Below, piece by piece: positions 19,938 to 45,975 of a stretch of DNA of 64,000 bases. The position numbers and the translations under genes are program-made. The notes beneath the pieces were generated by a model. It was not told the origin of the DNA and made no database searches. It saw only the letters and a program-made list of their open reading frames with translations. Each line of letters begins with the position of its first letter. Position 1 is the first letter of the stretch. This DNA is from Mustelus asterias (lineage: Eukaryota), in the NCBI RefSeq assembly GCF_964213995.1, contig NW_027590388.1, forward strand, positions 310,001 through 374,000, read 5' to 3'.

Positions 19938-20495
19938 AGGTTGATCTTTCCCCGAATTAAGCTGAAAAATGATGCAGATAGTTTGACGTCTGTCTAATGC
20001 ACAAGTACTGAGTGCCCAGTGCAAGAGGATAATTGATAGATACCGTTTTAAATACACAGGGAAAAAGTAATCACCCAACTCAGAATTGAGATGCGGTTCG
20101 ACTGGGAAAACAGAGATTTCAGTCAGTCAATATTATTAACCCAGCAACTTCAACATGTGACATCTCTGAGTCTGCCTTTGATATTTAATCACTTTTGAAA
20201 GATGTGGTCTGTCACACAGTTAACTGATCTGGAGCATTTAAAATACAGATTGATGACCTTGTTCTCCTGAAAGACCTGCGGGTTTGTGTGAATGGGATCG
20301 GGGAATGATTGGACTTGATCTGATAGTAATATGAGTAAAAATATCTCAAATTTACCAACAGTGACAATTATTGACCTCAATGAGGGAAAACACTCAGATG
20401 GGGCTATATTGTCACGTTCACTATGGGTAAAATTTCTCTGATGTTTAACCCCATGTGTTGTCCTGACAATGAACCATTGATTATCGACCTGTGCC

Positions 20496-20534
20496 AGTTT
20501 TTGTATGAGGCCCGCGGGAGCCTCATTCACTGTG
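20496..20534 (-). promoter_or_regulatory. 23-bp-spacer recombination signal sequence of V segment A
   Basis: CACAGTG-AATGAGGCTCCCGCGGGCCTCAT (23 nt)-ACAAAAACT. Confidence 0.95.
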
Positions 20535-20844
20535 GGTCTCGGTGCACAGTAATACACGGCGCTGTCTGTCATCTTCAAATCTTTCATGGACAAGTGAAAA
20601 GTGGTTTGTTTCAGGTTGAGATTCCCACTGAAGTGTTCAAAGCCGGGAGCCGTATCGGTAAACCCACAACTAGCGGCTCTGAGCAGATACTGAGGAGCTC
20701 GGTGTGGATACTGGCGATACCAGAACAGGTCATGCTGTGTAGCTGAACTCGATGCAGAGTAACTGCATCATATTGCTGAATCTTCACCCTCTGCTGCTTC
20801 AACAACTGGTTCTAACTGGGGCACTGAGTCTCTGTTACTCATGT
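20535..20844 (-). pseudogene. TCR alpha/delta-type V segment A (V exon), pseudogene
   Basis: DSVPQLEPVVEAAEGEDSAI*CSYS...LFWYRQYPHRAPQYLL...LKMTDSAVYYCAPR: one in-frame TGA, and a CR1 inserted at the splice acceptor. Confidence 0.9.
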
Positions 20845-23046
20845 CATGGCCCAAAAGTTAAAATTCTAAATTGGGGCAAGGCGAATTTTGATGGTATCAG
20901 GCAGGAACTTTCAAAAGTTAATTGGAGGAGTCTGTGGGAAGGCAAAGGGACGTCTGGTAAGTGGCAAGCTTTCAAAAGTGTGTTAATCAGGGTTCAGGGT
21001 AAGCACAGTCCTCTTAGAGTGAAGAGCAAGGCTGGTAGACGGAGGGAACCCTGGATGACTCGGGATATTGAGGCCCTGGTCAAGAAGAAGAAAGGGGCAC
21101 ATGACATGCATAGGCACTGGGATCAAGTGAATCCCTTGAAGAGTATAGGGGGTGTAGGAGTAGAGTTAAGAGAGAAATCAGGAGGGCAAAAAGGGGACAC
21201 GAGATTGTTTTGGTAGATAAGGCAAAGGAGAATCCAAAGAGCTTCTACAAATACATAAAAGGCAATGGAGAGAGTAGGGCTTCTTAATGATCAGCATGGT
21301 CATCTACGTGCCGATCCACAGGGATGGGTGAGATCCTAAATGAATATTTCTCATCAGTATTTAGTGTTGAGAAAAGCATGGATGTTAGTGAACTTGGGGA
21401 GATAAATAGTGATGTCTTGAGGAGTGTACATATTACAGAGAAAGAGATGCTGGAAGTCTTAAAGGGCATCAAGATAGATAAATCCCCGGGACTTGATGAA
21501 GTGTGTCCCAGGACATTGTGGGAGGCTCGGGAGGAAATTGTGGGTCCCCTAGCCGAGATATTTGAATCATCGATAGTCACGGGTGAGGTGCCTGAAGATT
21601 GGAGAGTGGCAAATGTTGTGCCTTTGTTTAAAAAGGGCTTCAGGGAAAAGCCTGGTGAGCCTCACATCTGTGGTGGGTAAGTTGTTGGAAAGTATTTTGA
21701 GAGACAGGACCTACAGGCATTAAGAGATGCAAGGACTGATTAGGGACAGTCAGCATGGCTTTGTGAGTGGAAAATCATGTCTCACAAATTTGATTGAGTT
21801 TTTTGAAGGGGTAACCAAGATGGTGGATGAGGGCAGTGCAGTTGGTGTTGTCTTCATGGACTTTAGCAAGGCCTTTGACAAGGTACCGCATGGTTGGTTG
21901 TTGCATAGGGTTAAATCTCATGGGATCCAGGGTGAGATATTTAAATTGATACAAAAGTGGCTTCTGGACAGAAGCCAGAGTGTGGTTGTAGAGGGTTGTC
22001 TTTAAAACTGGAGGCCTGTGACCAGCGGTATGCCTCAGGGATCAGTGCTGGGTCCACTGTTATTTGTCATGTATATTAATGATTTGGATGATAATATAGG
22101 TAGCATGGTTTGCAGATTACACCAAGATTGGTGGCATAGTGCACAGCGAAGAAAGTTATCTCCGATTGCAACGGGATCTTGATCAATTGGGCCAGTGAGC
22201 TGACGAATGGCAGATGGAGTTTAAGTTAGACAAATGCGAGGTGATGCATTTTGGTGGATTGAACCAGGGCAGGACTTACACAGTTAATGGGAGGACGTTG
22301 GGGAGAGTTACAGAACAAAGAGATCTAAGGGTACATGTTCAGAGCTCCTTGAAAGTGGAGTCACAGGTGGACAGAGTGGTGAAAAAGGCATCGGCATGCT
22401 TGGTTTCATTGGTCAGAACATTGAATACAGGAGTTGGGATGTCTTGTTGAAGTTGGACAAGACATTGGTGAGGCCACACTTGGAATACTGTGTACAGTTC
22501 TGGTCACCCCATTGTAGAAAGGATATTATTAAACTGGAAAGAGTGCAGAAAAGATTTACTAGGATGCTACCGGGATTTGATGGACTGAGTTATAAGGAGA
22601 GGCTGGATAGACTGGGACTTTTTTCTCTGGAGCGTAGGAGGCTGAGGGGCGATCTTATAGAGGTCTATAAAATAATGAGGGGCACAGATCAGCTGGATAG
22701 TCAATATATTTTCCCAAAGATAGGGAAGTCTAAAACCAGAGGGCATATGTTCAATGAGAGGGGAGAGATACAAAAGTTCCAGAGGGGCATTTTCTTCGCA
22801 CAGCAGGTGGTGAGCATCTGGAACAAGCTGCCAGAGGCAGTAGCAGTGGTGGGTACAATGTTGTTTTTTAAAAAGCATTTTGACAGTTATATGGGTAAGA
22901 TGGGTATAGAGGGATATGGGCCAAATGCGGGCAATTGGGATTAGTTTAGTGGTTTAAACAAAAAGGGCGTCATGAACAAGTTGGGCCGAAGGGCCTGTTT
23001 CTATGCTGTAAACCTCTGTTACTCTGTGACTCTATGACTCTATCTC
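20845..23046 (+). mobile_element. CR1/HER1 LINE, 5'-truncated, inserted at the V-exon acceptor
   Basis: RT motifs and a (CTATGACT)-like tail; the empty site CTCATGTCTGAAAATA is seen in the paralogue at 36411-36426. Confidence 0.92.
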
Positions 23047-23170
23047 TGAAAATAAACAGCGGACACAAAGCGGATTAGGAGGAACAACAACGGAATAATT
23101 GCCTCGAGATGGAAATGGGGAACTAATCTGGTGATTGCCGGATTTCACCCAAAGGTTCAAAATGACCGAG

Positions 23171-23216
23171 CTGTGATCAGGACAATAACCAGAGTCAGAC
23201 AGAATTTCACCCCCAT
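23171..23216 (-). pseudogene. Leader exon of V segment A
   Basis: 46-nt phase-1 exon MGVKFCLTLVIVLIT+G; donor reads CT where the paralogue has GT. Confidence 0.8.
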
Positions 23217-23403
23217 GATTCCAGTTAGAGCTTCAGAAACAGAGACAGTGATCACTGACTGTACCAGAACTGCAATTGGAGAAGTTGAAACAGTCAGTGG
23301 AATGGTATGAGGTCGAACGTGACTCCCTGTCTCCGCCCATTTTTACATCTTCAAACAGGCGCTTCCTCTCGAAGGAATGGTGACCTTGCATAAGTGATCA
23401 GAG

Positions 23404-23418
23404 AGCGCCCTCCCGTGG
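23404..23418 (-). promoter_or_regulatory. CTCF-like site upstream of the V-A leader
   Basis: CCACGGGAGGGCGCT, 2 mismatches to CCACCAGAGGGCGCT; identical in the paralogue. Confidence 0.45.
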
Positions 23419-25357
23419 ACAGCACTGCCGCATATTGGAAACAGACACACACACGGCCACCTGCAAAGACTGACACATTTCGAGATATTAAAATCATAGA
23501 ATCCGTACAGTACAGAAGAATGCCATTCGGCCCAGCGAGTATGTACTGGCCACAACGCCACCCAGGCCCTATTCCCGTAACCCCATATATTTACCCCGCT
23601 AATCCCCCTGACACTTGGGTCAATTTAGCATGGCTAATCAACCGAACCTGCACATCTTTGGATTGTGGGAGGAAACCGGAGCACCTGAGGAAACCCAGCA
23701 GACACGGGGAGAGCAGATACATACACGGCCACGTGCAAAGGCTAACACATGTAAGGATATATAACCATATAGATATATGCCCAGGCACTGACATCAACGT
23801 CCCTCGCTATAAATACAGAATTATTCTGTAGATTTGTGATATATATTAGTCTCAGCTGTTAACCATGATAATACATGAAATCATAGAAATCATAGAAACC
23901 CTACAGTGCAGAAGGAGGCCATTCGGCCCATCGAGTCTGCACCGACCACAATCCCACCTCCGTGTTCACTGGAAGCGTCGTATACCGCACAGAATCAACA
24001 AAGTATAGACACAGGGACAAGTAAACACAGTGATCGATTCTCAAACCGATCGACTCAAACATAGACACACAGTCACTGAGGAAGATAAACAATCAGATTA
24101 ACACAGCCATAGACACACTAAAGAGAAGTGCGCCCATTGACAATGCCAAAAACGTACTAGTTCCAGAGTAAACTTCCTGAACTCGAATTCCCTGGGGTCG
24201 TGTCAGTGCGGCAATATCCCGTTAGATATTCATCGCGATGGAACTGTCCATTTTAACAACAGGAACAGCCAGAAATCTATTTCTTACCAACGGTGATCAC
24301 TAATTGATGACTATAAGCAATTGACGACTATTGGAGAATAAGCAACAATGCTTATTTATTTTTATTTTTTTACAGTCAACCATATTCTGGATGTGTCCGT
24401 GTCATGTTTAAAGTTTGTTTATTAGTGTCACAAGTGGGATTACATTCATACTGCAATTAAGTTACTGTAAAAATCCACTGGTCGCCACACTCCGGGAGAA
24501 CTTTAGCATGGTAATGCACCGAACCAGTGCATCTTTTGGACTGTGGGAGAAAACCAGAGCACACAGAGGAAACCCACGCAGACACAGGAAGAACATACAA
24601 ACTGCACACAGACCCAAGCCAGGCATCGAACCCGGGTCCCTGGCGTGGTGAGGCAGCTATGTGCCACTGTGCCACCCCGTGTGAGATCAGTGCATGCAAG
24701 ACAGATTTCCCACCCATTCTCAATGTTATCGGATTAAATGTTCGGGACACAGGAGGACAACACAAGGAGACTGCTTTGGGTGCAGGTGATTCATTCTCTT
24801 CTGTTATATTCCACATTCTGTGGAAAGTTGTGGAGTTACTTAGTTATATTATATATAATTCAGAAATAATGAGGAGATGCTTCATCCGATTAAACTCGTT
24901 TTGTAAATTCAATATGAAATCAATTGCATAAATAAATATATGTCTACATTGAAAGCTAAATTGGGAAGCTATATCCAATACTTCATGCCATTGGATCAAG
25001 GAAACGTTGTTACTTAAAGCAAACTGTATGGACACGGATTCCACAGAAACTCCTTCTTCAAATGGGGATTGAACAATGACTTGAAAGGGAGAAAAATCAG
25101 CTTCATGGAATGAGAGGAGGAAACTGAAATGAGAACAAAGAACAGTGCAGCACAGGAACAGGCCCTTCGGCCCACCAAGCCCACACCGATACATCAGTTG
25201 GGTAGCTCGTAATCAAATAATTGGCATAGGCATTGTGGGTCAAAGGGCCTCTTATTGTTGCCTGCCATTGTCAACCATTTTCAATCATTCTTGGATCAAT
25301 ATGTCTACAGCATTCACAATGAGTGTTGCAACATTTCAAGAGACTCCCATTGGGTGC

Positions 25358-25421
25358 TTGCAAGTGGTGATTGCATTCACCTCACACACGAAAGCTCCCC
25401 AGTTCAAAGCCATGCCGGAAT
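25358..25421 (+). pseudogene. tRNA-Val(CAC) pseudogene, 5'-deleted
   Basis: GTGGTGATTGCATTCACCTCACACACGAAAGCTCCCCAGTTCAAAGCCATGCCGGAAT aligns to tRNA-Val; same flanks as 44989. Confidence 0.65.
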
Positions 25422-25716
25422 GTTATTAGTATTTGTTCTTTAAGGATGAGGGAAGTTTACATGATTTAAATTTGTTACTGAACATTATCCGCAACTCAAT
25501 ATTAACGCCATATTATCTTTGCTCTGACCTCGGCCTCAAAATCTTACAACAAAATCTGAAATCTTGTATTTTTATGACGCAATGAAAGGAAATAGAGGTC
25601 CCTTTTTGACACCGTGTTCATATCAGCAACTCGTTCAGTCCACAACAGAATTTAATGGCTTTATTGATGCAGACGAACAAAGTTAATCACCATCTGAAAC
25701 ATATCTAAAAGTATAA

Positions 25717-25871
25717 ATGATGTGGAGATGCCGGCGTTGGGCTGGGGTAAACACAGTAAGGAATTTAACAACACCAGGTTAAAGTCCAACAGGTTTATTT
25801 GGTAGCTAGTGGCGTTTGCTACCAAATAAACCTGTTGGACTTTAACCTGATGTTGTTAGACTCCTAACAGT
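25717..25871. mobile_element. Miniature foldback Penelope insertion (pLTR end plus its inverted copy)
   Basis: ...GGTTAAAGTCCAACAGGTTTATTTGGTAGC / GCTACCAAATAAACCTGTTGGACTTTAACC... hairpin; same sequence as the Penelope termini at 37.6 and 40.3 kb. Confidence 0.8.
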
Positions 25872-26587
25872 ATAAAGACAGGCATACGTGAAACTGTAAC
25901 TGAACTAGAGGAAATAGCGCACATTGCACACCATCTTTTTAACATCGTTGTTCAGAGTAAAGAATTAGGGAAAGCCTCTCAGACAGATGAGGAAATCGAG
26001 AATCAGTGTGGATCTGCTGGACTTCCTGCAGATGAACGAGATTTAGGCGCCAGAATGTTTCACTCGCAGAGTAAAGAGGGATCAAGTATAACTAACAGAT
26101 AATTCTTAAATCTCTTCCCTTTAAAGATATCTGATTTTGTTTAAAAGCTGACTGTCTCAAATAAGCACCATGGGATGTGTATTACCCAGTGACTCGATTT
26201 CTTTTGTTGGTCAGTCATGCTTGCAATTCAATGTTGTATATTTCAGAGATATTCAGTTCAAAATGAGGTGATATGTAATTAATAAAAATATATTAATATT
26301 AAACGTTGAAAAGCAAACAAGCACTGGGTGGAGCTGGTTAAAATTATTCGAAGGAAGATGAGAATGATGCATTAATGATTGAGCAGAAATCATTGCTCCT
26401 TAGATGTTTGCTGGACGACCACTTTTAAATGTTGAAGTTGAAGATAAGTTGAGAAATCAAGTTGAAAGAAATGTTTTTTGTCTTGTATTAATTGACATGG
26501 GCTCTCAGTGTAACCATTAGAACCTGCAGCAACACAGTGGGGGTGAACATTGCGGTCAGGCCAATTGGTGGCGCTATGTTGTCAGTT

Positions 26588-26660
26588 GTTCCTGTAGTGT
26601 AGTGGTTATCACGTTCGCCTAACACGCGAAAGGTCCCCGGTTCGAAACCGGGCAGAAACA
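26588..26660 (+). tRNA. tRNA-Val(AAC)
   Basis: 73 nt, nearly identical to vertebrate tRNA-Val-AAC; intact A/B boxes; one C.A mismatch in the acceptor stem; no clean T4 terminator. Confidence 0.9.
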
Positions 26661-27418
26661 TTAATTTACTCATTCATTGTGAGAGTAGTTTTGCATGGTT
26701 TCAGTTTTTGCTGCACCTCTTCCGAATCTCGATGTTGCAGCCATATTATCTTTGCTCTAAACTCGGCCACAAATGCTCTCAGCAAAATCAGAAATGCTGT
26801 AGTTTAAGACGCAATGAGGAAATAAATGTGTGTATTTGGACACCGTGCGCATATCAGCAACTTGTTCAAACCACAAGAGAATTTAATGGTTTTATAAATG
26901 CAGACTAACATAGTTAATCACCATCTGAAACATGTCAAATAGTATTGTGTGCTCATAAAGACAGACACAAGTGAAACTGTAAATGAACTAGAGGAAATGG
27001 CAGACATTGTCCAGAAGCATCTTTTTGAAATTGTTCTTCATAATAAAGAAATAGGAAAAAGCACTCAGGCAGATGAAGAAATCGAGACTCAGTGTAGATC
27101 TGCTGGACTTTCCTATAGATGAACGGGATTTAAGCACCAGAATATTTCACACGCAGAATAAAGAGGGATCAAGTATAACTGACAGATCATTCTTAAATCT
27201 CTTCCCTTTAAAGATATCTGATTTTGTTTAAAAGCTGACTGTCTCAAATAAGCACCATGGGATGTGTATTACCCAGTGACTCAATTTCTTTTATTGGTCA
27301 GTCATGTTTGCAATTCAATGTTTCATATTCCCGAGATATTCAATTCAGAATGAAGACGTATGTATTAAATACATGTATTAATATTTAATATCGAATAACG
27401 AAACAAATATTGAGTAAC

Positions 27419-28450
27419 CAGCCAACGATTCAAGTCTGGATGACCCTTCATCAGAGCTAAGAGCAAAGAAAAGCAGAAAAGATTTAAATTATGGGTGGAA
27501 GGGTGGAAGGGGGGTGCTGTAATTGGACAAAGGGAATGCAAATGAGGATAAAGATGGCTGAGAGAGATGCTAAAAATGTCCATTAAGCGATCAGAATAGC
27601 AGAGCAGAGGTAAAGGTGGTTAAGGCAGTTGCCCTGAAAGAGGAGTGGGGGGCGGGGGGGGGGGGGGGGGGAGGAGGGGGGGGCGGGGGGCGTTGGTGGG
27701 GGGTGGGGGGAGAGGCAAGAAGGAGAGCAGGAATGAAGAAATGGAAATGAGAAAGAAGTATGATAAAAATGGGTAAATGAGATGAAGAGAAGAAACAGAA
27801 TGAAATAAAATAAATGGAAAGGGGATAAAGGTGGCGGGGAGAGTTCATGCTCTGAAGTTGTTGAACTCAATGTTTATTCCAGAAGGCTGTAAAGTGTCCA
27901 ATTGGAAGATGAGGCACTGTTCCTCCAGTTTGCGTTGGGGTTCATTCAAACATTGCAAAAGGCCAAGGACGGACATGTGGACAGGAGAGCAGGGTGGGGT
28001 GTTGAAGTGACAAGAACTGGAAGTTCTGGGTCCTGCTTGCAGACGGACTGAAGGTGTTCAGCAAAGCGATCACCCAGTTTGTGTTTGGTCTCTCCAATGT
28101 AGGAGAGTAGACTTCATGGGGAGGAGCGAATGCAATAGACTAGACTGAAGGAGATGCATGTGAATCGCTGCTTCACCTGAAAGGGGTGTTCAGGACTTGG
28201 GATGGTGAGCAGGGAGCAGGTAAAGGGACAGGTGTTGCACCTTCCACCATTGCATGGGAAGATGCTGTGGGCAGGGGATGGGATGTTGGGTGGGATGGAG
28301 GCGTGGACCAGGCTGTCCCAGAGAGAACCTTCCTTGTGAAATGCTGTTGGGTGTGAGTGGTGAGGTGAAGATGTGTTGAGGAGTGGCTTCATGCTGGAAT
28401 TGGCAGCAATGGCGGAGGATGATACTTTGAACACGGAGGCTGGTCTCTGA
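27419..28450 (-). mobile_element. Penelope-like element 3' part (GIY-YIG region plus pLTR), degenerate
   Basis: FPCNGGRCNTCPF...FQVKQRFTC...LVYCIR motif; pLTR with hammerhead-like core at 27419-27458; G-rich tract 27645-27715. Confidence 0.75.
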
Positions 28451-29060
28451 TCTGGTAAAAAGCATGAACAAGGGGAGCCCTGTCCTCTTTCTAGGAGGGA
28501 TTATGTGAATGCCAAATCTTTCCTGATTTGTATTATTCTTATTGTGATGTAACCTATAGATTGTAGGACTCCTGTGAAACTGAATGCGAGTTGTTTTCTG
28601 CACAGATAGCTTTGAAATTTGCTGTTGAGTGCAATGAGGTTGGGTTCAACGCCTGCAATGTTCTGCGAACGCTCCACAATTTAAAAATAAGTCTTTAATT
28701 CCAAACTGCGGTCGCAAACAATGGGTATATTCCCATTACCATGACATTAATTGTATCGCAGCTTGATGTATTTCCATTCACTGGCTTCCAGCGCACCACC
28801 GACTGGTGGAGCAAGACCACAAAGTGGCATGATTGTCTTTTGGAAGAATGAGTCGAGTACGGTTCTGTGCTGGATCTGCCTGACAGATTGGATTCTGCAG
28901 TTGTTTTCTCCACTGCTGCTGGAAACAGTTAGGTGGTGGTTTCATCTGAGGTTAACTTGGTTTCCTCTGTGTGTGTGTGTTTGAGAAGCTGACAGCTCAG
29001 TTAACATCTTGCCATTAGGCAATCCTCAATCGTCTCGGGCTCATTCCTCCAGTGTAAGCA

Positions 29061-29099
29061 GGTTTTTGCACGAAAGTGGACCTTCTTTCTATCACTGTG
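29061..29099 (-). promoter_or_regulatory. 23-RSS of V segment B
   Basis: CACAGTG-ATAGAAAGAAGGTCCACTTTCGT (23 nt)-GCAAAAACC. Confidence 0.95.
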
Positions 29100-29406
29100 C
29101 GTCTGAACGCGCAGTAATAAACGGCAGCATCAGTCTGGCTCAGGTCCAATATATTTAAACTCATGAATTTGTTCGAGGCCTGTAGATCCACATAGAACCG
29201 ACTTTTAAAAACATCTGCGTTATCTTCATAACCATCAGGATCTTTCCGCAGAATAAAGACGGGCTGCGTGTCCGGAAGTTGTCGGTACCAGTACAGCCTA
29301 TAGTCGCTCTCTGTGGTTTGATAGTCACAGGTCAAGGTCACGATCTCGCCTTCTCTCTTAACATCTGATGAGAGCGACTGGGTGACAGAATCTCCATGAC
29401 TCAGGT
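29100..29406 (-). CDS. TCR alpha/delta-type V segment B, intact V exon
   Basis: TTTTCAG acceptor; DSVTQ...TLTCDY...LYWYRQ...SRF...DAAVYYCAFR with both canonical Cys and Trp and no stops, followed by a 23-RSS. Confidence 0.92.
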
Positions 29407-29516
29407 CTGAAAATAACAAAACAGAAAATGTTCAGACGGGCGAATCATGAAAGAGACGGTCTGGAACCAAGCTGGGAAATGTGAGAAACGGTGCAATGTA
29501 TTTTTCACATAATTAC

Positions 29517-29561
29517 TGTTAGGAATGGTCCCCACATTACCCACACACCGACCAGCCACAT
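29517..29561 (-). other. Putative leader exon of V segment B (phase-incompatible as read)
   Basis: MWLVGVWVMWGPFLT then GTAATT: 45 nt (phase 0), whereas the V exon needs phase 1. Confidence 0.55.
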
Positions 29562-29759
29562 TGTCGCTGTGCGCTCTGTAGAAGGGGAGCTGGGTGTTTG
29601 ATTTCATCAAGTCTAATGTTTGCCCTCAATAATCAGCTTCCTGTTTCCGGATGTTCTCAGCTCCCTCCCTTCTGTCCCCAGTAATGCTGTGTGACACCCA
29701 AGGTGGTGAGATAGCAGACAGTAAAAAAAACGCACCGTGAGCTGGATGACAATCACTAT

Positions 29760-30397
29760 TTGTTAAGAAGGCATATGGTGTCTTGGCGTTTATTGGTAGG
29801 GGGATTGAATTTAGGAGTCGTAGCGTTATGTTGCAACTGTACACAACTCTGGTGCGGCCGCACTTGGAGTACTGTGTGCAGTTCTGGTCCCCACATTACA
29901 GGAAGGATGTGGAGGCTTTGGAGAGGGTGCAGAGGAGGTTTACCAGGATGTTGCCTGGTATGGAGGGGAGATCCTATGAGGAGAGGCTGAGGGATTTGGG
30001 ATTGTTTTCGCTGGAAAGGCGGCGGCTAAGAGGGGATCTTATTGAAACATATAAGATGATTAGAGGTTTAGATAGGGTGGATAGTGATAGCCTTTTTCCT
30101 CTGATGGAGAAATCCAGCACGAGGGGGCATGGCTTTAAATTGAGGGGGGGTAGTTATAGAACCGATGTCAGGGGTAGGTTCTTTACCCAGAGGGTGGTGA
30201 GGGATTGGAATGCCCTGCCAGCATCAGTAGTAAATGCGCCTAGTTTGGGGGCGTTTAAGAGATCCGTAGATAGGTTCATGGACGAAAAGAAATTGGTTTA
30301 GGTTGGAGGGTCACAGTTTTTTTTTTAACTGGTCGGTGCAACATCGTGGGCCGAAGGGCCTGTTCTGCGCTGTAATGTTCGATGTTCTATGTTCTAT
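29760..30397 (+). mobile_element. CR1/HER1 LINE 3' end
   Basis: RPHLEYCVQFWSP...GLFSLERRRLRGDL; (TGTTCTA)n tail. Confidence 0.92.
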
Positions 30398-30935
30398 CCT
30401 TACAGAGAGAACTTGCAGATTTAACGATTGACTTGGGGAAGAATGTAGAAAAATGGGGTGTAGGAATATGGGAACAGCAGTAGGCCATTCTGCCCTTCGA
30501 TTCTGTTTCGTCATTCAGTTAGATCAGGACTGATAAGCCTGAACACCACTTTCTGGCGCTATCTGCATCGCCCTTGATGAGATTTTGCTCCTTAAAGCTA
30601 TTGATTGAACATACTCAACAATTGACATTCCACAAAGCCCGTTAATTTTCTTATTTTCTGTGACCCGGAAGCTAAGGAAGGCTAAATAGCTCTGCCATTT
30701 TATTTTTTAAACGTCCATTAGCCTTATTATAAGGACAGTTTCAATCGTGAATCCAGTGAAAGTTTGTTCTGTGTGCGGGACATGGGTGCCACTGGTTGGC
30801 CAGCATTTATTGTCCATCACTAGTTGAGAATCAACCACATTGCAGTGGCTCTGGTGTCACATGTAGGCCAGACCAGGTAAGGAATGCAGTTTTTCTTCCC
30901 GAAATTACATTAGTGAACCAGATTCTTAATTGTAC

Positions 30936-32938: not shown

Positions 32939-33240
32939 TGTTTTGGTGCGGGGCTCCCTCTGGTTTCTGTCTCTGAGTCTGTCAGTCCGCAGTAATACAC
33001 CGCGTGGCCAGACAATCGCAGCTCACGGATGGGGAAATTCCCATTGTTTTTCGACCGGTCAATAGATGCAGAAAATCAGGCTCCCATGTCCTCTGCAATG
33101 GAAATGTCTCCATAATTAGAATGTAGTTCAAGAAAATGGGAGCTTTCTCTCGGTCCTTGCGGGACAATTGAATGTAATATGCACCAACTGCTCAGCAGTT
33201 GAACTTAATGGTCACCGAGTCTCCTTCAAACGTCAAGCTG
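32939..33240 (-). pseudogene. Highly decayed TCR alpha/delta-type V segment C with relic 23-RSS
   Basis: EGDSVTI...KAPIFL / ...*FSASIDRSKNNGNFPIRELRLSGHAVYYCGLT with stops and a frameshift; CTCAGAG-23 nt-ACCAAAACA at 32977-32939. Confidence 0.8.
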
Positions 33241-33517
33241 AATTGTGGATTGTGGTCGGTGTATACTCCATGGGCCGAATGGCCTCCTTTTACACTGTAT
33301 AGTTTCTATGATTCGGTGAAGTTTTGGGAACCGGAGTTCGAATTCTAACACGACAGATTAACTCAATTCAAGGGCAATTAGGGATGCCTGTAAATGAGTA
33401 AAGAAAATACTATCTATGCAACTTTTCCTCACTTAAACGAATAGGTTTTGAGAAAGTTTGCACCCGATTTTGAAAGGTCGGGCCAATATGTAAACATTGC
33501 TATATCTTGCAGTGTGT

Positions 33518-33590
33518 GGGTCAGTGGCGCAATGAATAACACGTTTAGCTACGGATTAGAAGTGTCCAGATTCGACTCCTGGCTGACACA
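33518..33590 (+). pseudogene. tRNA-Arg(ACG) pseudogene
   Basis: GGGTCAGTGGCGCAATGAATAACACGTTTAGCTACGGATTAGAAGTGTCCAGATTCGACTCCTGGCTG aligns to vertebrate Arg-ACG with multiple substitutions. Confidence 0.75.
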
Positions 33591-34572: not shown

Positions 34573-34579
34573 ATTTGGG

Positions 34580-35225: not shown

Positions 35226-35252
35226 ACAACATCTGACTTGGAGACAACGAAA

Positions 35253-35342
35253 GGGCTCGTCCACGATTTGAACCCGGGACCCCTTGCATGCTCATCAACT
35301 GAAATTCCCTAAGCGCGAATCAGACCCCTGCACCAACGAAAC
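35253..35342 (-). pseudogene. tRNA-Pro(AGG) gene/pseudogene with an 18-nt insertion at the canonical intron position
   Basis: GTTTCGTTGGTGCAGGGGTCTGATTCGCGCTTAGGG[AATTTCAGTTGATGAGCA]TGCAAGGGGTCCCGGGTTCAAATCGTGGACGAGCCC; 90 = 72 + 18 nt. Confidence 0.75.
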
Positions 35343-35500
35343 TGATGTGGAGATGCCGGCGTTGGACTGGGGAAAGCACAGTAAGAAGTCTCACAACACC
35401 AGGTTAAAGTCCAACAGGTTTATTTGGTAGCAAATACCATAAGCTTTCGGAGCACAGCTCCTTCGTCAGATGGAGTGGATATCTGTTCTCCAACAGTGCA
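35343..35500 (-). mobile_element. Penelope pLTR fragment with hammerhead motif
   Basis: TGATGTGGAGATGCCGGCG... terminus as at 40318; hammerhead core at 35437-35473. Confidence 0.8.
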
Positions 35501-36075
35501 CAGAAACTGCACATAAGCAAGCATTAAAATATAACTCATTTATCTTTCTCCAAAGCAGTTCTGACACCTCCAGTGAAAGACGAAATTGTTGAAAAAACTC
35601 ACCGCATCAGCATTTGTGGACTTAAAGCTCCAGCGAAATATCCGCCCAATATTGTTATCTCGACTGTCTGCAGCTGGGGGCTTTTGTTTATAAAGTACAC
35701 ATGTTACAGTCAATATTTTAACCCAGCGACTTCAACATGTGACAACTCTGAGGCAGCCTTTGATATTTGATCACTTTTGAAAGGTGTGGTCTGTCACAGT
35801 TAACTGATCTGGAACATTTAAAATACAGATTGATGGCCTTGTTCTCTTGGGAGATCTGCGGGTTTGTGTCAATGGGGTCGGGAAACGATTGGATTTGATC
35901 TGATATTAATATGAGTAAAAATATGTCAAATTTCTCAACATTGACAATGATTAACCTCAGTGAGGGAAAACACTCAGACGGGGCCTAATTGTCACGTTCA
36001 CTATGAGTAATTATTCTCTGAAGTTTAACCCCATGTGTTGTCCTGATAATGAATAATTGATTATCGACCTGTGCC

Positions 36076-36579
36076 AGATTTTGAATGAGGCCCGCGGGAG
36101 CCTCATTCACTGTGGCTCTCAGTGCACAGTAATACTCGGCGCTGTCTGTCACCTTCTAATCTTTCATGGACAAGTGAAAAGTGCTTTGTTTCAGGTTGAG
36201 ATTCCCGCTGAAGTGTTCAAAGCCTGGAGCCGTATCGGTAAATGAGCGGCTCTGAGCAGTTAATGAGGAGTTCGGTGTGTGTACTGGCGATACCAGAACA
36301 GGTAATGTTGTATAGCTGTACTCGGTACCGAGTAACTGCAGGGTATTGCTGAATCTTCACCCTCTGCTGCTTCAACTCCTGGTTCTGACTGGGACACTGA
36401 GTCACCGTCACTCATGTCTGAAAATAGACGACAGACCCGCAGCGGGTTAGAAGGAGTAACAACAACGGAATAATCACCTCGAGATAGAAATGGGGAATGA
36501 ATATGGTGACTGGCGGATTTCACGCAGAAGTTCAAAATGACAGACCTGTAATCAGAGTAAGAAAGAGTTTCGCCCCCAT
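36076..36579 (-). pseudogene. TCR alpha/delta-type V segment D (paralogue of A): leader 36579-36546, V exon 36417-36115, 23-RSS 36114-36076
   Basis: Leader MGAKLFLTLIT+G|GT; DSVSQSEPGVEAAEGEDSAIPCSY...WYRQ; TAA plus a net 7-nt deletion near CDR2; heptamer CACAGTG, nonamer decayed (TCAAAATCT). Confidence 0.9.
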
Positions 36580-37642
36580 GGTTCGAGTCTGAACACCAGA
36601 AACAGAGAGTCATCACTGCCTGCATCAGATCTGCAATTAGAGAAGTTGAAACAGTCAGTGGGATGTTATGAGGTCGAAGGTGACTCCCTCTCTCCGCCCA
36701 TTTTTACATCTTCAAACAGGCGCTTACTTCCATTAGAAGGGGATCGTGATATTTCATAAGTGATCAGAGAGCGCCCTCCCGTGGACAGCACGGCCGCATA
36801 TTGGAAACAGGTCCACACACGGCCACCTGCAAAGACTGATACCTATCTAGGTAATAGAATCATAGAACCCCTACAGTACAGAAGGAGGCCATTCGGCCCA
36901 CAGAGTCTGTACCGATCACAAGCCCACCCAGGCCCTATTCCCATAACCTCATACATTTACCCCGCTAATCCCCTGACACTAGGGTCAATTTAGCATGGCC
37001 AATCAAACTAACCTGCACATCTTTGGACCGTGGGAGGAAACCGAAGCACCCGAGGAAACCCATGCGGACACGGGGAGAGCAGATACACACACGGCCACAT
37101 GCAAAGACCAGCATGTATAAGGATATACAACCATATAGATATATGCTCAGACAGTGACATCAATTCTAACGTCCCTCGTTATAAATCCAGAATTATTCTG
37201 TAGATTTCTGACACATTAGTCTGAGTTGCTAACTATGGAAATACATGAATAACTCCAACTCCGTGTTCACTAGAAGCCTCGTGAACCGCACAGAATCAAC
37301 AAAAGCATAGACACAGGGACAAGTAAACACAGTGATCGATTCTCAAACTGATCGGCTCAAACATAGACACACAGACAATCACTAAGGAAGATAAACAAAC
37401 AGATTAACGCAGCCACTGACACACTCAAGAGAAGTGCACTCACTGACAATCCCAAAAGCGTCCTAGCTCCAGAGTAACTTTCTGAACTGGAATTCCCGAG
37501 GGTCGTGTCGGTGCGGCAATATCGTGTTAGATATTCATTGCGATGGAACTGTCCATTTTAGCAACAGGAACAGCCAGAAATCTGTTTCTCATCAATGGTG
37601 GACACTTTTGGAGAATAAGCAATAATGGATGTATTTATTTTT

Positions 37643-40318
37643 ACACAGTAAGAAGTTTAACAACACCAGGTTAAAGTCCAACAGGTTTATTTGGTAGCAA
37701 AAGCCACACAAGCTTTCGGAGCTCTAAGCCCCTTCTTCAGGTGAGTGGGAATTCTGTTCACAAACAGAGCTTATAAAGACACAAACTCAATTTACATGAA
37801 TAATGGTTGGAATGCGAATACTTACAACGAATCAAGTCTTTAAGAAACAAAACAATGTGAGTGGAGAGAGCATCAAGACAGGCCAAAAAGATGAGTATTG
37901 TCTGCAGACAAGACAGCCAGTGAAACTCTGCAGGTCCAGGCAACTGTGGGGGTTACAAATAGTGTGACATGAACCCAATATCCCGTTTGAGGCCGTCCTC
38001 GTGTGTGCGGAACTTGGCTATCAGTTTCTGCTCAGCGACTCTGCGCTGTCGTGTGTTGCGAAGGCCGCCTTGGAGAACGCTTACCCGAATATCAGAGGCC
38101 GAATGCCCGTGACCGCTGAAGTGCTCCCCAACAGGAAGAGAACAGTCTTGCCTGGTGATTGTCGAGCGGTGTTCATTCATCCGTTGTCGCAGCGTCTGCA
38201 TAGTTTCCCCAATGTACCATGCCTCGGGACATCCTTTCTTGCAGCGTATCAGGTAGACAACGTTAGCCGAATTGCAAGAGTATGTACCGTGTACCTGGTG
38301 GATGGTGTTCTCACGTGAGATGATGGCATCTGTGTCGATGATCCGGCACGTCTTGCAGAGGTTGCTGTGGCAGGGTTGTGTGGTGTCATGGTCACTGTTC
38401 TCCTGAAGGCTGGGTAGTTTGCTGCGGACAATGGTCTGTTTGAGGTTGTGCGGTTGTTTGAAGGCAAGAAGTGGGGGTGTGGGGATGGCCTTGGCGAGAT
38501 GTTCGTCTTCATCAATGACATGTTGAAGGCTCCGGAGGAGATGCCGTAGCTTCTCTGCTCCGGGGAAGTACTGGACAATGAAGGGTACTCTGTCCACTGT
38601 GTCCCGTGTGTTTCTTCTGAGGAGGTCGGTGCGGTTTTTCGCTGTGGCGCGTCGGAACTGTTCATCAATGAGTCGAGCATCATATCCTGTTCTTATGAGG
38701 GCATCTTTCAGCGTCTGGAGGTGTCTGTTGCGATCCTCCTCATCCGAGCAGATCCTGTGTATACGGAGGGCTTGTCCGTAGGGGATGGCTTCTTTAACGT
38801 GTTTAGTGTGGAAGCTGGAGAAGTGGAACATCGTGAGGTTATCCGTGGGCTTGCGGTACAGTGAGGTGCTGAGGTGACCGTCCTTAATTGAGATGCCTGT
38901 GTCCAAGAATGCAACCAATTCCGGAGAGTAGTCTATGATGAGTCTGACGGTGGGATGGAATTTGTTGATGTCATCATAGAGTTGTTTCAGTGATTGTTCA
39001 CCATGAGTCCAATGGAAGAAAATGTCATCGATGTATCTAGTGTATAGCATCGGTTGAAGGTCCCGTCCGGTGAAGAAGTCTTGTTCGAACCTGTGCATGA
39101 AGATGTTGGCATATTGAGGTGCGAATGTGGTCCCCATGGCTGTTCCGTGTGTCTGGATGAAGAACTGGTTGTTGACGGTGAAGATGTTGTGGTCCAGGAT
39201 GAAGCGGATGAGTCGTAAAATTGCATCTGGAAACTGGCAGTTGTTGGCGCTGAGCACTGAGGCCGTTGCAGCAATGCCATCGTCATGGGGGATGCTGGTG
39301 TAGAGTCCCGAGACATCCATTGTGACGAGGAGCGCTCCTGGTTCAACTGCTCCATGTGTGCCGAGTTTCTGTAGGAAGTCCGTCGTGTCGCGACAAAAGC
39401 TGGGGGTTCTTTGTACAATGGGTTTCAGGATGCCCTCGACATAGCCGGAGAGGATCTCGCACAGGGTTCCGTTTCATGAAACGATGGGACGGCCGGGTGT
39501 GTTTGCCTTGTTTATCTTCGGGAGGCAGTAGAGATCTCCAACGCGGGGAGTATGTAGGATGAGAGCACGGAGGGTGTTCTGTTGGTCCGGATCAAAGGTC
39601 TTGATCAGAGTGTTGAGTTGACGGGTGTGTTCTTTGGTCGGATCTGCAGGTAACTGTCTGTAGTGTTCCTCGTTGTTGAGTTATCGGTACACTTCTTTGC
39701 AGTAATCCGTTCTGTTCAGTATGACGATGGCCCCTCCTTTGTCTGCTGGTTTGATGACAATGTTGCGGTTGGTCTTGAGAGCGTGGATGGCGTTACGTTG
39801 TGCTTGGGTGATGTTCGGGGCTACCTTGTGAGTGCGGCTGATGAATTTGGTGTTGACGCACCTCCTGACGGCTTGGGCATACATGTCAAGTCGAGGGCAG
39901 CGGCCTTCCGGAGGAGTCCAATTCGACTCTTTCCTCTTCGGATGCACTGCGGATCTCTCTGTCGGCTGTTCCGGTTCATTGGCTGTCTCATTGTGTTCGT
40001 TGTTGGCCTCTTGGGGTTTGTGGAAGAACTCCCTCAGCCTCATTCGCTTGATGAATTCCTCTGTGTCTGCTGCGAGACTGATGGGGTCTATTTTGGTGGT
40101 GGGGCAAAAATTAAGCCCTTGGCTTAATTCATGTAAATTGAGTTTGTGTCTTTATATGCTCTGTTTGTGAACAGAATTCCCACTCACCTGAAGAAGGGGC
40201 TTAGAGCTCCGAAAGCTTGTGTGGCTTTTGCTACCAAATAAACCTGTTGGACTTTAACCTGGTGTTGTTAAACTTCTTACTGTGTTTACCCCAGTCCAAC
40301 GCCGGCATCTCCACATCA
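37643..40318 (-). mobile_element. Penelope-like retroelement (RT plus GIY-YIG) with inverted pseudo-LTRs
   Basis: ORF 37953-39320 with YTRYIDD and VVYLIRC...WYIGET; upstream frameshifted parts (IVIKPADKGG); ~160-bp inverted termini; TTTATTTTT duplicated at 37634 and 40319. Confidence 0.93.
40185..40221 (+). ncRNA. Minimal hammerhead ribozyme motif in Penelope pLTR (inverted copy at 37707-37743)
   Basis: CAC-CTGAAGA-A-GGGGC/GCTCC-GAAA-GCT-T-GTG. Confidence 0.65.
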
Positions 40319-41289
40319 TTTATTTTTACAGCCAAACACATTCTGGATGTGTCCGTATCATGTTTAAAGTTTATTTATTAGAGTCACAAAAGTAGGATTA
40401 CGTTAATACTGCAATGAAGTTACTGTGAAAATCCCCTAGTCGCCACACTCCGCCACCTGTTCGGGGACACTAAGGGAGAAATTTAGCATGGCAATACACC
40501 GAACCAGCACGTATTTCGGACTGTGGGAGGAAACTGGAGCAAATCCACACAGACACGGGAAGAACGTGCAAACTCCACACAGAACCAAGCCAGGAATCGA
40601 ACCCGGGTCCCTGGCGCTGTGAGGCAGCAGTGTGCCACTGTGCCACCGTGCCACCCCGTGTGAGGTCGGTGTAGGTAAGACAGATTCCCCACCCATTCTC
40701 GAGGTTGTCAGATCGGATGTTCGGGACAACTCAAGGAAACTGCTTCAGGTATAGGTGATTCATTCTCCTCTGTTATATTCCACACTCTGTGGAAAGTTGT
40801 GGAGTTAATGTAGTTATATTAGATATGATTCCGAAATAGTGAGGAGATGCTTCATCCGATTAAAGTCGTTTTGCAAATTTGATATGAAATCAATTGCTTA
40901 AATAAATATATGTTTACATTGAAAACTATATTGGGAAGCTATATCCAATACTTCATGCCATCGAGTCAGGGAAACGTTGTTACTTAAAGCAAACTGTACA
41001 AGGATTCCACAGAAACTCCTTCTTCAAATGGGGATTGGACAATGACTTGAAAGGGAGAAAAATCAGCTTCATGGAATGAGAGGAGGAAATTGAAATGAGA
41101 ACAAAGAACAGTGCAGCACAGGAACAGGCCCTTCGGCCCACCAAGCCCGCACCGACACGTCAGTTTGGTAGCTCGTCATAAAATAATTGGCATAGGCATG
41201 GTGGGTCGAAGGGCCTCTTATTGTTCTTTGCCATTGCCAACCATTTTCAATCATTACAACAATCTGAGGTCCCTATCTGCTTCAGGAAG

Positions 41290-43548
41290 TGGAGATAGTG
41301 ACCACAATTCGGTGTCTTTTGTTATTGCAATGGAGAGGGATAGGGCCGTACGGCAGGGCAAGGTTTACAATTGGGGGAGAGGTAATTATGATGCGATTAG
41401 GCAAGAATTAGGGGGCATAAGTTGGGAACAGAAACTGTCAGGGAAAGGAACTAATGAAAAATGGAACTTTTTCAAGGAACAAATACTGGGTGTCCTTGAT
41501 AGGTATGTCCCTGTCAGGCAGGGAGGAAATGGCCGAGTGAGGGAACCATGGTTCACGAAAGAGGTGGAATGTCTTGTGAAAAGGAAGAGGGAAGCTTATG
41601 TAGGGATGAGGAAACAAGGTTCAGATGGCTCGATTGAGGGTTACAAGTTAGCAAGGAATGGGCTGAAAAAGGGGCTTAGGAGAACTAGGAGGGGACACGA
41701 GAAGTCCTTGGCGGGTCGGATCAAGGAAAACCCCAAGGTTTTTTACACTTATGTGAGGAATAAAAGAATGACCTTGGTGAGGTTAGGGCCGGTCAAGGAC
41801 AGTAGTGGGAACTTGTGTATGGAGTCAGTAGAGATAGGGGAGGTGATGAATGAATACTTTTCTTCAGTGTTCACCAAGGAGAGGGGCCATGTCTTTGAGG
41901 AAGAGAAGGTGTTCCAGGCTAATAGGCTGGAGGAAATAGATATTCGGAGGGAGGATGTCCTGGCAGTTTTGAATAAACTGAAGGTCGATAAGTCCCCTGG
42001 GCCTGATGAAATGTATCCTAGGATTCTTTGGGAGGCAAGGGATGAGATTGCAGAGCCTTTGGCTTTGATCTTTGGGTCCTCGCTGTCCACGGGGATAGTG
42101 CCAGAGGACTGGAGAATGGGGAATGTTGTTCCTCTGTTTAAGAAAGGGAATAGAAATGACCCTGGTAATTATAGACTGGTTAGTCTTACTTCGGTGGTTG
42201 GTAAATTGATGGAAAAGGTCCTTAGGGATGGGATTTACGACCATTTAGAAAGATGCGGATTAATCCGGGATACTCAGCATGGATTCGTGAAGGGCAAGTC
42301 GTGCCTCACAAATTTGATTGAATTTTTTGAGGAGGTAACTAAGTGTGTTGATGAAGGTAGGGCAGTTGATGTCATATACATGGATTTTAGTAAGGCATTT
42401 GATAAGGTTCCCCATGGTCGGCTTATGATGAAAGTGAGGAGGTGTGGGATAGAGGGAAAGTTGGCCGATTGGATAGGTAACTGGCTGTCTGATCGAAGAC
42501 AGAGGGTGGTGGTGGATGGAAAATTTTCGGATTGGAGGCAGGTTGCGAGCGGAGTGCCTCAGGGATCAGTGCTTGGTCCTCTGCTCTTTGTAATTTTTTA
42601 TTAATGACTTAGAGGAGGGGGCTGAAGGGTGGATCAGTAAATTTGCTGATGACACCAAGATTGGTGGAGTAGTGGATGAGGTGGAGGGCTGTTGTAGGCT
42701 GCAAAGAGACATAGATAGGATGCAAAGCTGGGCTGAAAAATGGCAAATGGAGTTTAACCCTGATAAATGTGAGGTGATTCATTTTGGTAGGACTAATTTA
42801 AATGTGGATTACAGGGTCAAAGGTAAGGTTCTGAAGACTGTGGAGGAACAGAGAGATCTTGGGGTCCATATCCACAAATCTCTTAAGGTTGCCACTGAAG
42901 TGGATAGAGCTGTGAAGAAGGCCTATAGTGTGTTAGCTTTTATTAACAGGGGGTTGGAGTTTAAGAGCCGTGGGGTTATGCTGCAACTGTACAGGACCTT
43001 GGTGAGACCACATTTGGAATATCGTGTGCAGTTCTGGTCACCTCACTATAAGAAGGATGTGGAAGCGCTGGAAAGAGTGCAGAGGAGATTTACCAGGATG
43101 CTGCCTGGTTTGGAGGGTAGGTCCTATGAGGAAAGGTTGAGGGAGCTGGGGCTGTTCTTTTTGGAGCGGAGGAGGCTGAGGGGAGACTTAATAGAGGTTT
43201 ATAAAATGATGAAGGGGATAGATAGAGTGAACGTTCAAAGACTATTTCCTCGGGTGGATGGAGCTATTACAAGGGGGCATAACTATAGGGTTTTTGGTGG
43301 GAGATATAGGAAGGATATCAGAGGTAGGTTCTTTATGCAGAGAGTGGTTGGGGTGTGGAATGGACTGCCTGCAGTGATAGTGGAGTCAGACACTTTAGGA
43401 ACATTTAAGCGGTTATTGGATAGGCACATGGAGCACACCAGGATGATAGGGAGTGGGATAGCTTGACCTTGGTTTCAGATAAAGCTCGGCACAACATCGT
43501 GGGCCGAAGGGCCTGTTCTGTGCTGTATCGTTCTATGTTCTATGTTCT
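41290..43548 (+). mobile_element. CR1/HER1 LINE, 5'-truncated and relatively young (one frameshift near 42595)
   Basis: Long RT ORFs 41111-42604 and 42672-43466; (TGTTCTA)n tail. Confidence 0.93.
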
Positions 43549-43549
43549 A

Positions 43550-44902
43550 AGAAGATGACCATCATCCCGGTACCTAAGAAAAATCAAGCAGCATGCCTTA
43601 AGAACTATCGGCCGGTGGCTCTGACATCCATCATTATGAAGCGCTTCGAAAGGTTTGTCATGGCACGAATCAATTCCAGCCTCCCGGACTACCTGGATCC
43701 ACTACAGTTGCCTATCGCCGCAACAGGTCCACAGCAAGACGGCATTTCCCTGGCCTTGCACTCAACCCTGGATCACCTAGATCACCTATTTATCGACTAC
43801 CGCTCAGCCTTCAACACTATTATTCCACGAAACTCATCTCCATACTTCGTGGCCTGGGCCTCAGCACCTCCTTTGTGACTGGATCCTGAACTTCCTAACT
43901 CACAGACCACAATCTGTAAGGACAGGCAACAACACCTCCTCCACGATCATCCTCAACACCGTGCCCCACAAGGCTGTGTTCTCAGCCCCCTACTACACTC
44001 CTAATATACCTATGACTGTGAGGCCAAATTCCCCTCCTATTCGATTTTCAAGTTTGCTGACGAGACCACTATAGTGGGTCGGATCTCAAACAATGATGAG
44101 ACAGAGTACAGGAATGAGGTAGAGGATCTGGTGAACTGGTGCAGCAACAATAATATCTCCCGCAATGTCAACAAAACGAAGGAGATTGTCATCGATTTCA
44201 GGAAGCGTAAAGGAGAACATGCCCCTGTCTACATCAATGGGACGAAGTAGAAACGGTCGAGAGCTTCACGTTTTTAGGTGTCCAGATCACCAACTATCTG
44301 TCCTGGTCCCCGCATGCCGACACTATAGTTAAGAAAGCCCACCAACACCTCTACTTCCTCAGATGACTAAGGAAATTTGGCATGTCAGCTACGACTCTTA
44401 CCAACTTTTACAGATGCACCATATAAAGCATTCTTTCTGGTTGTATCATAGCTTGGTATGTCCTGTTCTACCCAAAACTGCAAGGAACTACAAAAGGTCG
44501 TGAATGTGCCCAATCTATCACACAAACCAGCCTCCCATCCATTGACTCTGTCCACACTTCCCGCTGCCTGGGCAAAGCAGCCTGCATAATTAAGGACCCC
44601 ATGCACCCCGGACATTCTCTCCTTCACCTTCTTCCTTCTGGAAAAAGATACAAAAGTCTGAGGTCACGTACCAACCAACTCAAGAACGCCTTCTTCCCTG
44701 CTGCCGTCAGACTTTTGAATAGATTTACCTTGCATTAAGTTGATCTTTCTCTTCACCCTAGCTCTGACTGTAAGACTGCATTCTGCACACTCTCATTTCC
44801 TTCTCTATGAGCGGTATGTTTCGTCTATGTAGCGCGCAAGAAACAATACTTTTCACTGTATGTTAATACATGTGACAATAATAAATCAAATCAAATCAAA
44901 AT
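43550..44902 (+). mobile_element. Rex1/Babar-type LINE
   Basis: IIPVPKK...NYRPVALTSIIMK; (AAATC)n tail. Confidence 0.85.
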
Positions 44903-44988
44903 CATACTTGGATCAATATGTCTACAGCAGTCCCAATGAGTGTTGCAACATTTCAAGAGAGTCCCATTGGGTCCGATGGACGCCAGCA

Positions 44989-45061
44989 GTTTCTGTAGTG
45001 TAATGGTGGTTGCATTCGCCTCACACACAAAAGGCCCCTCGTTCAAAGCCATGCCGAAATA
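44989..45061 (+). pseudogene. tRNA-Val(CAC) pseudogene
   Basis: GTTTCTGTAGTGTAATGGTGGTTGCATTCGCCTCACACACAAAAGG...; stems disrupted. Confidence 0.7.
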
Positions 45062-45975
45062 TTATTAAAATTTGTTCATTCAGGGTGAGGGAAGTTTACA
45101 TGATTTTAAATTTGTTGTTAAACATTATCCGAAACTCGATATTAAAGACATGTTATCTATCATTGCTCTGACCTCGGCCTCAAAATCTTTCAGCAAAATC
45201 AGAGATCTTGTATTTTTATGACGCAATGAGAGGAAATAGATGTTCCTGTTTTGACACCGTGGACGTATCAGCAACTCATTCAGTCCACAACAGAATTTAA
45301 TGGCTTTGTTGATGCAGACTAACAAAGTTAATCATCATCTGAACCATGTCTAATAGCATTGTGTGCTCAAAAAGGCAGACACAAGTGAAACTGTAACTGA
45401 ACTCGAGGAAATGACGCACATTGCGCGGAACCATTATTTTAACATCGTTCTTCAGAGGAAACAAATAGGGAAAACCACTCTGACAGTTGAGGAAATCGAG
45501 AATTCGTGCGGATCTACTGGACTTTCCTGCAGCTGAATGGGATTTAGACGTCTGAGTGTTTCATACACAGAATAAAGAGAGATCAAGTATAACTAACAAA
45601 TCATTCTTAAATGATCTTTAAGTTATCTTTAAAGATATTTGATTTTGTTTAAAAGCTGATTGTGGTCAATCTCAATGAAGCACCGTGACTTGTGTATTAC
45701 CCAGTGATTCGATTCCTTTTGTTGGTCAGTCATGTTTGCAATTCAATGTTTCCGATTTCGGAGATATTTCATTCAGAATGAGAAGATATGTGATTAATAA
45801 AAATATATTAATATTAAACATTGAACAACGAACAAATATTGGATAGAACTGGTTGAAATTATTCGAAGGAAGATGAGAATGATGCATTGATGATTGAGCA
45901 GAAATCATTGCTTGCTTCAATATTTGCCGGACGACCGCTGTTAAAGGTTGAACTTCAAGATAAGTTGAGAAATCA

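Follow-up and report, generated by a model that had tools for sequence, protein, structure and literature searches.

Our data suggest that the interleaving of T-cell receptor (TCR) variable (V) segments with tRNA genes in a 64,000-nucleotide stretch of DNA from the shark Mustelus asterias (the window; C356:310001-374000) is likely a neutral by-product of segmental duplication, the segment having been copied many times within an antigen-receptor field. We put the probability of this reading at about 0.7. The window's contig, C356, is unplaced; C71, to which we refer throughout, is a large scaffold of the same assembly (G000). Self-comparison, a scan for recombination signal sequences (RSSs) and six-frame reading give the order along the window as V-A pseudogene, tRNA-Val pseudogene, tRNA-Val gene, V-B, V-C pseudogene, tRNA-Arg pseudogene, tRNA-Pro pseudogene, V-D pseudogene and tRNA-Val pseudogene, the order that a first-pass annotation of this DNA had proposed.

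Repeated duplication of a V segment with a tRNA-Val array

The first-pass annotation had also described a cassette of V segment and tRNA-Val gene present twice in the window. The duplication itself stands: positions 20124-26462 (copy A) and 35707-45978 (copy D) align in six collinear blocks, with 3,877 aligned bases at 83-89% identity and retroelement insertions private to each copy. The duplication is therefore old and real, and this level of identity together with the copy-specific insertions rules out an assembly stutter. The described content of the cassette needs correction, since what was duplicated is a pseudo-tRNA, and the intact tRNA-Val gene lies just outside as the second unit of a tandem array.

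Nor is the co-occurrence of V segments and tRNA genes limited to this one duplication; the V/tRNA-Val junction recurs at many loci. For each of the two partners, V-A-family copies and tRNA-Val copies, we read 20 upstream stretches of 10 kb, chosen from the top 40 matches. Nine of the V-A-anchored stretches hold a collinear promoter, spacer and tRNA-Val array, and one further stretch holds a mixed tRNA cluster. Starting from tRNA-Val, the V segment is kept in 3 of 20 stretches, the V-side spacer is present without the V exon in 16, and the remaining one is a solo tRNA with no shared flank. The exon of the 16 V-less copies has been replaced by further tRNA-Val units in 11 cases and by other DNA, often zinc-finger (ZNF) sequence, in 5; a relic of the V leader could be read in 15 of the 16. 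Six contigs carry a larger unit, with the tRNA-Pro relic and V-D, at 99-100% identity, and C71 carries it at 90%.

A V-tRNA module under selection should keep both of its partners. We found instead that none of 15 tRNA-Val-linked V-A copies looks functional (14 have broken frames and one an open frame without an acceptor), against 5 of 16 unlinked copies, and that the V exon has been lost from 16 of the 19 tRNA-anchored loci that carry the junction. Across 14 loci the tRNA copies are 97.5% alike, compared with 86.7% and 90.5% for their flanks. The V exon, by comparison, tracks its flanks (86.6% versus 90.0% and 84.2%, 17 loci).

We envisage that one ancestral V gene was placed head-to-head with a tRNA-Val array, and that repeated unequal crossing-over and segmental duplication would then have copied 10-100-kb blocks holding several V segments and arrays, with breakpoints at interspersed repeats. 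Purifying selection would retain the tRNAs, and the V segments would undergo birth-and-death. The same process likely multiplied the IgM clusters and the TCR delta D-J-C cassette described below.

Regional rather than fine-scale linkage

To gauge how general V-tRNA proximity is, we compared 20 evenly spaced windows on C71 (14 of them inside the V zone), 20 V-anchored windows and 14 windows on large chromosomes. ARAGORN called tRNAs in 4 of the 20 C71 windows (10 genes, which represent many isotypes; a count of 11 before one false positive, a short interspersed nuclear element (SINE), was dropped), in 4 of the 20 V-anchored windows (8 genes) and in none of the 14 on large chromosomes. Counting relics as well, the figures are 5/20 (5/14 within the V zone), 10/20 and 0/14. 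V-anchored windows did not differ from unanchored windows of the same zone (10/20 versus 5/14, p = 0.50).

Two contiguous 200-kb stretches of C71 gave the same picture at closer range, where 1 of 12 V segments in the first and 2 of 18 in the second have a tRNA or relic no more than 5 kb away (p = 0.68 and 0.18 in a shift test). V segments and tRNAs form adjoining blocks in both stretches, and fine-scale attraction between them was not seen in either. The V-tRNA link holds at the regional scale, at which 13 of 18 exact copies of the tRNA-Val(AAC) core fall on V-bearing contigs, and not at the fine scale.

Several observations weigh against the duplication by-product reading or narrow it. In a tree of 30 loci that retain both segments (24 distinct rows, with a root placed for drawing only), the V-less copies are nested among V-bearing ones with four label changes, and the V losses come down to about three or four events that were later amplified, not sixteen. 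The counts are accordingly non-independent, and the kinship of the copies voids the nominal p of 0.04 for linked versus unlinked V segments. Four of the five intact unlinked V segments belong to one sub-lineage, for which only about 5 kb of upstream DNA was seen; the fifth (L172) lies beside a mixed cluster with ARAGORN-positive tRNAs. A copy of V-B with an intact splice donor is present in the same duplicon on C87. These last two cases indicate that working V segments can neighbour tRNAs, and because of the C87 copy the direction of hitch-hiking is shown for the V-A family only. On the contig of the window itself, a selected region, the shift test gave p = 0.03. V segments and tRNAs alike keep away from ZNF blocks, and tRNAs were more frequent in V-anchored windows (10/20) than in ZNF blocks (1/17, p = 0.004). 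Finally, relics were detected with a library of about a dozen isotypes, itself built from the samples on which it was used.

Alternative explanations

The first-pass annotation had proposed that V segments are amplified as passengers of tandem tRNA-array duplication. Co-duplication well beyond a single event bears out part of this proposal, as does the status of the V-A-family segment as a dead passenger. A stronger form, in which the arrays are the engine and either selection on tRNA dosage or recombination seeded by the arrays drives duplication and so multiplies the V segments, IgM clusters and TCR delta cassettes, seems unlikely to us. It can draw on the tRNAs being the conserved element of the unit, on arrays that reach seven copies per 10 kb and expanded after loss of the V segment, and on the distribution of exact tRNA-Val(AAC) cores, of which 13 of 18 lie on V-bearing contigs of the field (four others are singletons on large chromosomes, and one is solo on a small contig). 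However, the copied units are whole multi-gene segments that take in V-B, V-C, IgM, ZNF and TCR constant sequences, and the junctions we inspected pass not through tRNA but either through a long interspersed nuclear element (LINE; L150, L152) or through a short interspersed repeat that lies in the leader (L135, L141, L170). Blocks of ZNF genes free of tRNAs have been amplified too, and a tandem tRNA array on C16 has no V segment in the 10 kb read.

That array (L184, C16 98.59-98.60 Mb) is a homogeneous tandem array with a 1.78-kb unit that carries tRNA-Lys(TTT) and tRNA-Thr on opposite strands. Arrays of tRNA genes on C16, C11 and C6 showed up in a scan with RF00005, in which 63 of about 897,000 rough candidates were scored and which is no census.

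A second proposal of the first-pass annotation was that genes transcribed by RNA polymerase III (Pol III) shape V accessibility. Here Pol III-bound tRNA genes would act as barriers or as seeds of open chromatin, keeping scattered V promoters accessible to RAG amid ZNF- and LINE-rich chromatin. The divergent geometry of V promoter and tRNA recurs at 3-6 kb, and tRNAs share blocks with V segments and not with ZNF arrays. Barrier activity of tRNA genes is reported for yeast and mouse, and as putative for human T cells (PMC3258141). Pol III control predicts living V segments beside the tRNAs, and the uniformly dead V-A copies linked to tRNA-Val are the reverse. Moreover, most V segments in the two C71 stretches lie more than 5 kb from any tRNA and appear no nearer to tRNAs than expected, and 10 of 20 windows around V-B-family members (19 anchors with an open frame, their leaders not all checked) have no tRNA within 5 kb. 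The proposal is unsupported as far as DNA sequence can speak to it, and we consider such control quite improbable.

That unpurged haplotypes or mis-assembly of one locus account for most of the copies is hard to credit: some copies are indeed 99-100% identical between contigs (C356 and C147), most lie on unplaced contigs and copy counts may be inflated up to about two-fold, but the window's two copies differ by 11-17% and have private insertions, 24 of the 30 rows in the tree are different, identity among three TCR constant cassettes of a single scaffold is 92-97%, and one unit is present in six copies, more than two haplotypes can account for.

V segments and tRNA genes of the window

All four V segments lie on the minus strand with an RSS of 23-bp spacer 3' of each, near-consensus for V-A, V-B and V-D and degenerate for V-C. 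Copy A of the duplicon (20124-26462) comprises the V 3' flank, V-A, its leader and promoter, and the unit with the tRNA-Val pseudogene. The V-A RSS (20496-20534, minus strand) has a consensus heptamer and a nonamer with one mismatch. The RSS spacer of the V-A family (20505-20527 and 36085-36107 in the window) consists of an imperfect inverted repeat with the potential to fold into a hairpin. The V-A pseudogene itself (20535-20845, minus strand) has a stop ahead of its first cysteine, and its open part matches the Pfam V-set domain (E = 1.6e-10). A LINE fragment (20846-23036, plus strand), which we take to be of CR1 type, parts the splice acceptor from the exon; it has a reverse-transcriptase motif, is not in copy D, and its junction was read directly. 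The V-A intron, leader exon (~23165-23212), promoter and spacer up to the tRNA array follow at 23037-25289 (minus strand).

Copy D (35707-45978) has been enlarged by retroelement insertions at 37624-40322 and 41256-44899. The first of these is a minus-strand reverse-transcriptase remnant of a class different from the LINE fragments, and presumably Penelope-like. The V-D pseudogene (36076-36420, minus strand; RSS 36076-36114, V exon 36115-36420) has a frameshift and two stops. Between the two copies, V-C (32939-33213, minus strand) is a pseudogene remnant with its V part at 32978-33213 and the degenerate 23-bp-spacer RSS adjoining.

V-B (29061-29561, minus strand) has an RSS at 29061-29099, an open V exon at 29100-29406 and a leader at 29517-29561. 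It matches the Pfam V-set domain, its best single-domain matches in the PDB are TCR alpha and delta chains, and it is 61% identical to P0003. With a V-set domain nearest to TRAV/TRDV and a 3' RSS of 23-bp spacer, it is identified as a TCR alpha/delta V segment. It had earlier been read as intact, a view that we revise. The V-B leader exon is one base shorter at its donor than in the paralogues read, which is predicted to throw the open V exon out of frame; RNA-type contigs from relatives, 90-99% alike, join the longer leader to the V exon. The lesion is found in two of seven copies of the leader, the window's and one on contig C147, and because C147 shares it a sequencing error is less likely. 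No RNA record carrying V-B was listed in our lookup, which counts neither way. A functional V segment requires an in-frame leader spliced to an open V exon; V-A, V-C and V-D are broken and the V-B donor is one base short, and all four V segments of the window look non-functional, V-B by prediction.

The single tRNA match of both ARAGORN and Rfam in the window is the tRNA-Val(AAC) gene at 26588-26660 (plus strand; Rfam 61.5 bits), which folds into a cloverleaf with intact A and B boxes, scores above the cut-off of both programs and has one acceptor-stem mismatch (C4:A69). The four tRNA relics named in the first-pass annotation are also real, each matching true tRNA genes. Two are tRNA-Val pseudogenes, namely unit 1 of the tandem array (25350-25422, plus strand; 80% over 49 nt to an intact tRNA-Val, with homologous flanks) and the one in copy D (44989-45061, plus strand; 75-77% to intact tRNA-Val). 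The tRNA-Arg(ACG) pseudogene (33518-33590, plus strand) is 81% identical to an ARAGORN-called tRNA-Arg(ACG) and reaches 27.9 bits in Rfam (E = 3e-4 for a narrow stretch). The last relic is an intron-containing tRNA-Pro(AGG) pseudogene (~35250-35342, minus strand), for which the Rfam search gave no match; it is 81% identical to the intron-bearing tRNA-Pro(AGG) of L023, and its apparent insertion matches the 18-base intron of that ARAGORN-called gene. This intron-containing family (L023:2526-2616) also has matches on C5, C9, C12 and C24, with 179 first-look candidates in the genome. Heads of tRNA-derived SINEs do occur in the window (24611-24682, 40545-40634 and others) and are separate from the four relics.

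Elsewhere in the window, C2H2 ZNF arrays lie to the left of the V block (70-994, 6149-6653, 10836-11256 and 13518-14440), and a tandem repeat of about 69 bases is found at 50779-51643 (81-84% identity).

The window is a piece of the antigen receptor complex

A protein search with V-B gave at least 171 matches (the best 150 of 1,771 candidates were scored), which lie on both strands of C71 between 4.9 and 17.4 Mb and on dozens of unplaced contigs. C71 and the V-bearing contigs also carry constant (CH) exons, which we take to be of IgM isotype. Together they make up a field of more than 12 Mb, a duplicated mosaic of TCR alpha/delta V segments of either orientation, IgM exons, ZNF arrays and tRNA genes. 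Other parts of C356 (162 kb read) hold ZNF arrays, no V segment and one tRNA relic, with C2H2 arrays in 14 of 17 flanking stretches. At L122/L123 and L131 (C71 12.2297 and 12.3150 Mb), three RSSs of 23-bp spacer are stacked behind a V segment at 61-base spacing.

The elasmobranch antigen receptor complex (AgRC) is described in section 6 and Table S1 of PMC12227049 (Flajnik et al. 2025), where TCR alpha/delta V segments lie in both orientations between immunoglobulin heavy-chain (IgH) clusters in four species. On C71, TCR alpha/delta V segments are likewise linked with IgH clusters and TCR constant genes. In both arrangements, V segments of either orientation are distributed over megabases of one chromosome between IgM clusters, together with new antigen receptor TCR (NAR-TCR) and IgH-like V segments. 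The window is a piece of the AgRC, its unplaced contig being linked to C71 through shared duplicons. One difference is that tRNA and ZNF genes go unmentioned in the main text and in the two supplementary files of PMC12227049 that were word-searched. As far as these parts of that source go, scattered TCR alpha/delta V segments are already published and the V-tRNA interleaving is new in detail. The available part of PMC10322711 has nothing bearing on tRNA, and in a literature search of partial coverage, with much shark immunogenetics outside it, no TCR V field with tRNA genes in it came up, an absence that is correspondingly weak.

A multi-copy TCR constant cassette

Searching with the TCR constant region of P0058, we matched 19 Ig-domain exons and 19 transmembrane exons, with all 58 candidates scored. 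The cassettes lie on C71 at 7.14 Mb (L182-L183), 11.04 Mb (L179-L181) and 12.27 Mb (L124-L127), and on 16 unplaced V-bearing contigs. Over 11-16 kb, the three on C71 share 92-97% identity. In the constant exon, identity among eight gene models taken from different contigs is 82-100%; their automatic NCBI name is 'alpha chain-like'. At C71 12.25-12.27 Mb the constant gene is preceded by an IgH-like V segment, one free D flanked by 12/23 RSSs and five J motifs, the layout of a D and few Js before C. The D at 11.02 Mb is fused to a V (two of the three C71 cassettes were read for D). There, a broken V segment is joined to a D remnant that keeps the 3' 23-bp-spacer RSS of the D, just before the first J (L179:3469-3780; C71 11.0235-11.0238 Mb), and the sequence suggests that a V and a D of this TCR cassette were joined in the germline.

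A different constant gene lies at C71 18.42 Mb (block 18.40-18.43 Mb), with at least 13 J motifs before it and no D in the 40 kb read. No multi-copy cassette was found beside this alpha J-C block on C71. One 70% paralogue of the alpha-type constant exon was found at C546:240135-240455. Transmembrane exons scored equally against TRDC and TRAC, and sequence comparison did not by itself separate alpha from delta. We read these genes as likely many delta D-J-C cassettes (at least 19) and one main alpha block, and TCR delta is probably in a multi-cluster state in this shark. A fuller picture, in which TCR delta would be antibody-like, with at least 19 D-J-C cassettes that have V neighbourhoods of their own in a field of tens of megabases, away from the alpha J-C block and with tRNA arrays belonging to the duplicated scaffold by which they are spread, we regard as doubtful. 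Its weak link is the causal role given to the tRNA arrays in cassette spread. The amplified constant cassette is a lead worth following.

Cartilaginous fish TCR genes are stated in a review to be in a translocon arrangement (PMC6795676). Table S1 of PMC12227049, which lists gene models and is no census, places one delta C just upstream of the alpha C in stingray and catshark, as against at least 19 likely delta C copies here. A similar case is the newt, in which TRD lies apart from TRA and has more than one C-J-V cluster (PMC12698447). The newt, however, has one or two such clusters on separate chromosomes, compared with at least 19 copies here, three of them on the scaffold of the alpha J-C block. 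Multi-copy TCR delta constant genes of sharks were not found described in the literature that we could cover, a partial coverage that makes this absence weak.

Discussion

Mammalian receptor loci harbour passenger genes of their own, such as the olfactory receptor genes in TRA/TRD and ZNF280 and PRAME in IGL. As in the shark, unrelated multigene families reside between V segments and share in their duplication and deletion. The shark differs in that its passengers are Pol III genes of many isotypes, which show visible purifying selection while the adjoining V segment decays. Human tRNA clusters lie beside the extended major histocompatibility complex (MHC) and 14q11, although our literature search brought no confirmation of this. 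There, too, fast-evolving regions house tRNA clusters together with ZNF arrays and immune multigene families; the human clusters flank the immune genes, whereas those of the shark are interleaved and co-duplicated with them.

Our findings place tRNA clusters among the components of the shark antigen-receptor complex and show how a scattered V field grows, as mixed blocks are copied and most of the V copies die. The field also offers a natural experiment on the effect of tRNA genes on RAG access, with hundreds of related V segments near to or far from Pol III genes. It holds most copies of some tRNA genes, and if the fuller picture of TCR delta given above is true, T-cell clones would lose tRNA genes along with the DNA deleted in V(D)J recombination. 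Should the constant cassette hold, it would break the textbook contrast between clustered shark immunoglobulin genes and a single-translocon TCR, and would make one ask how allelic exclusion operates across many delta loci.

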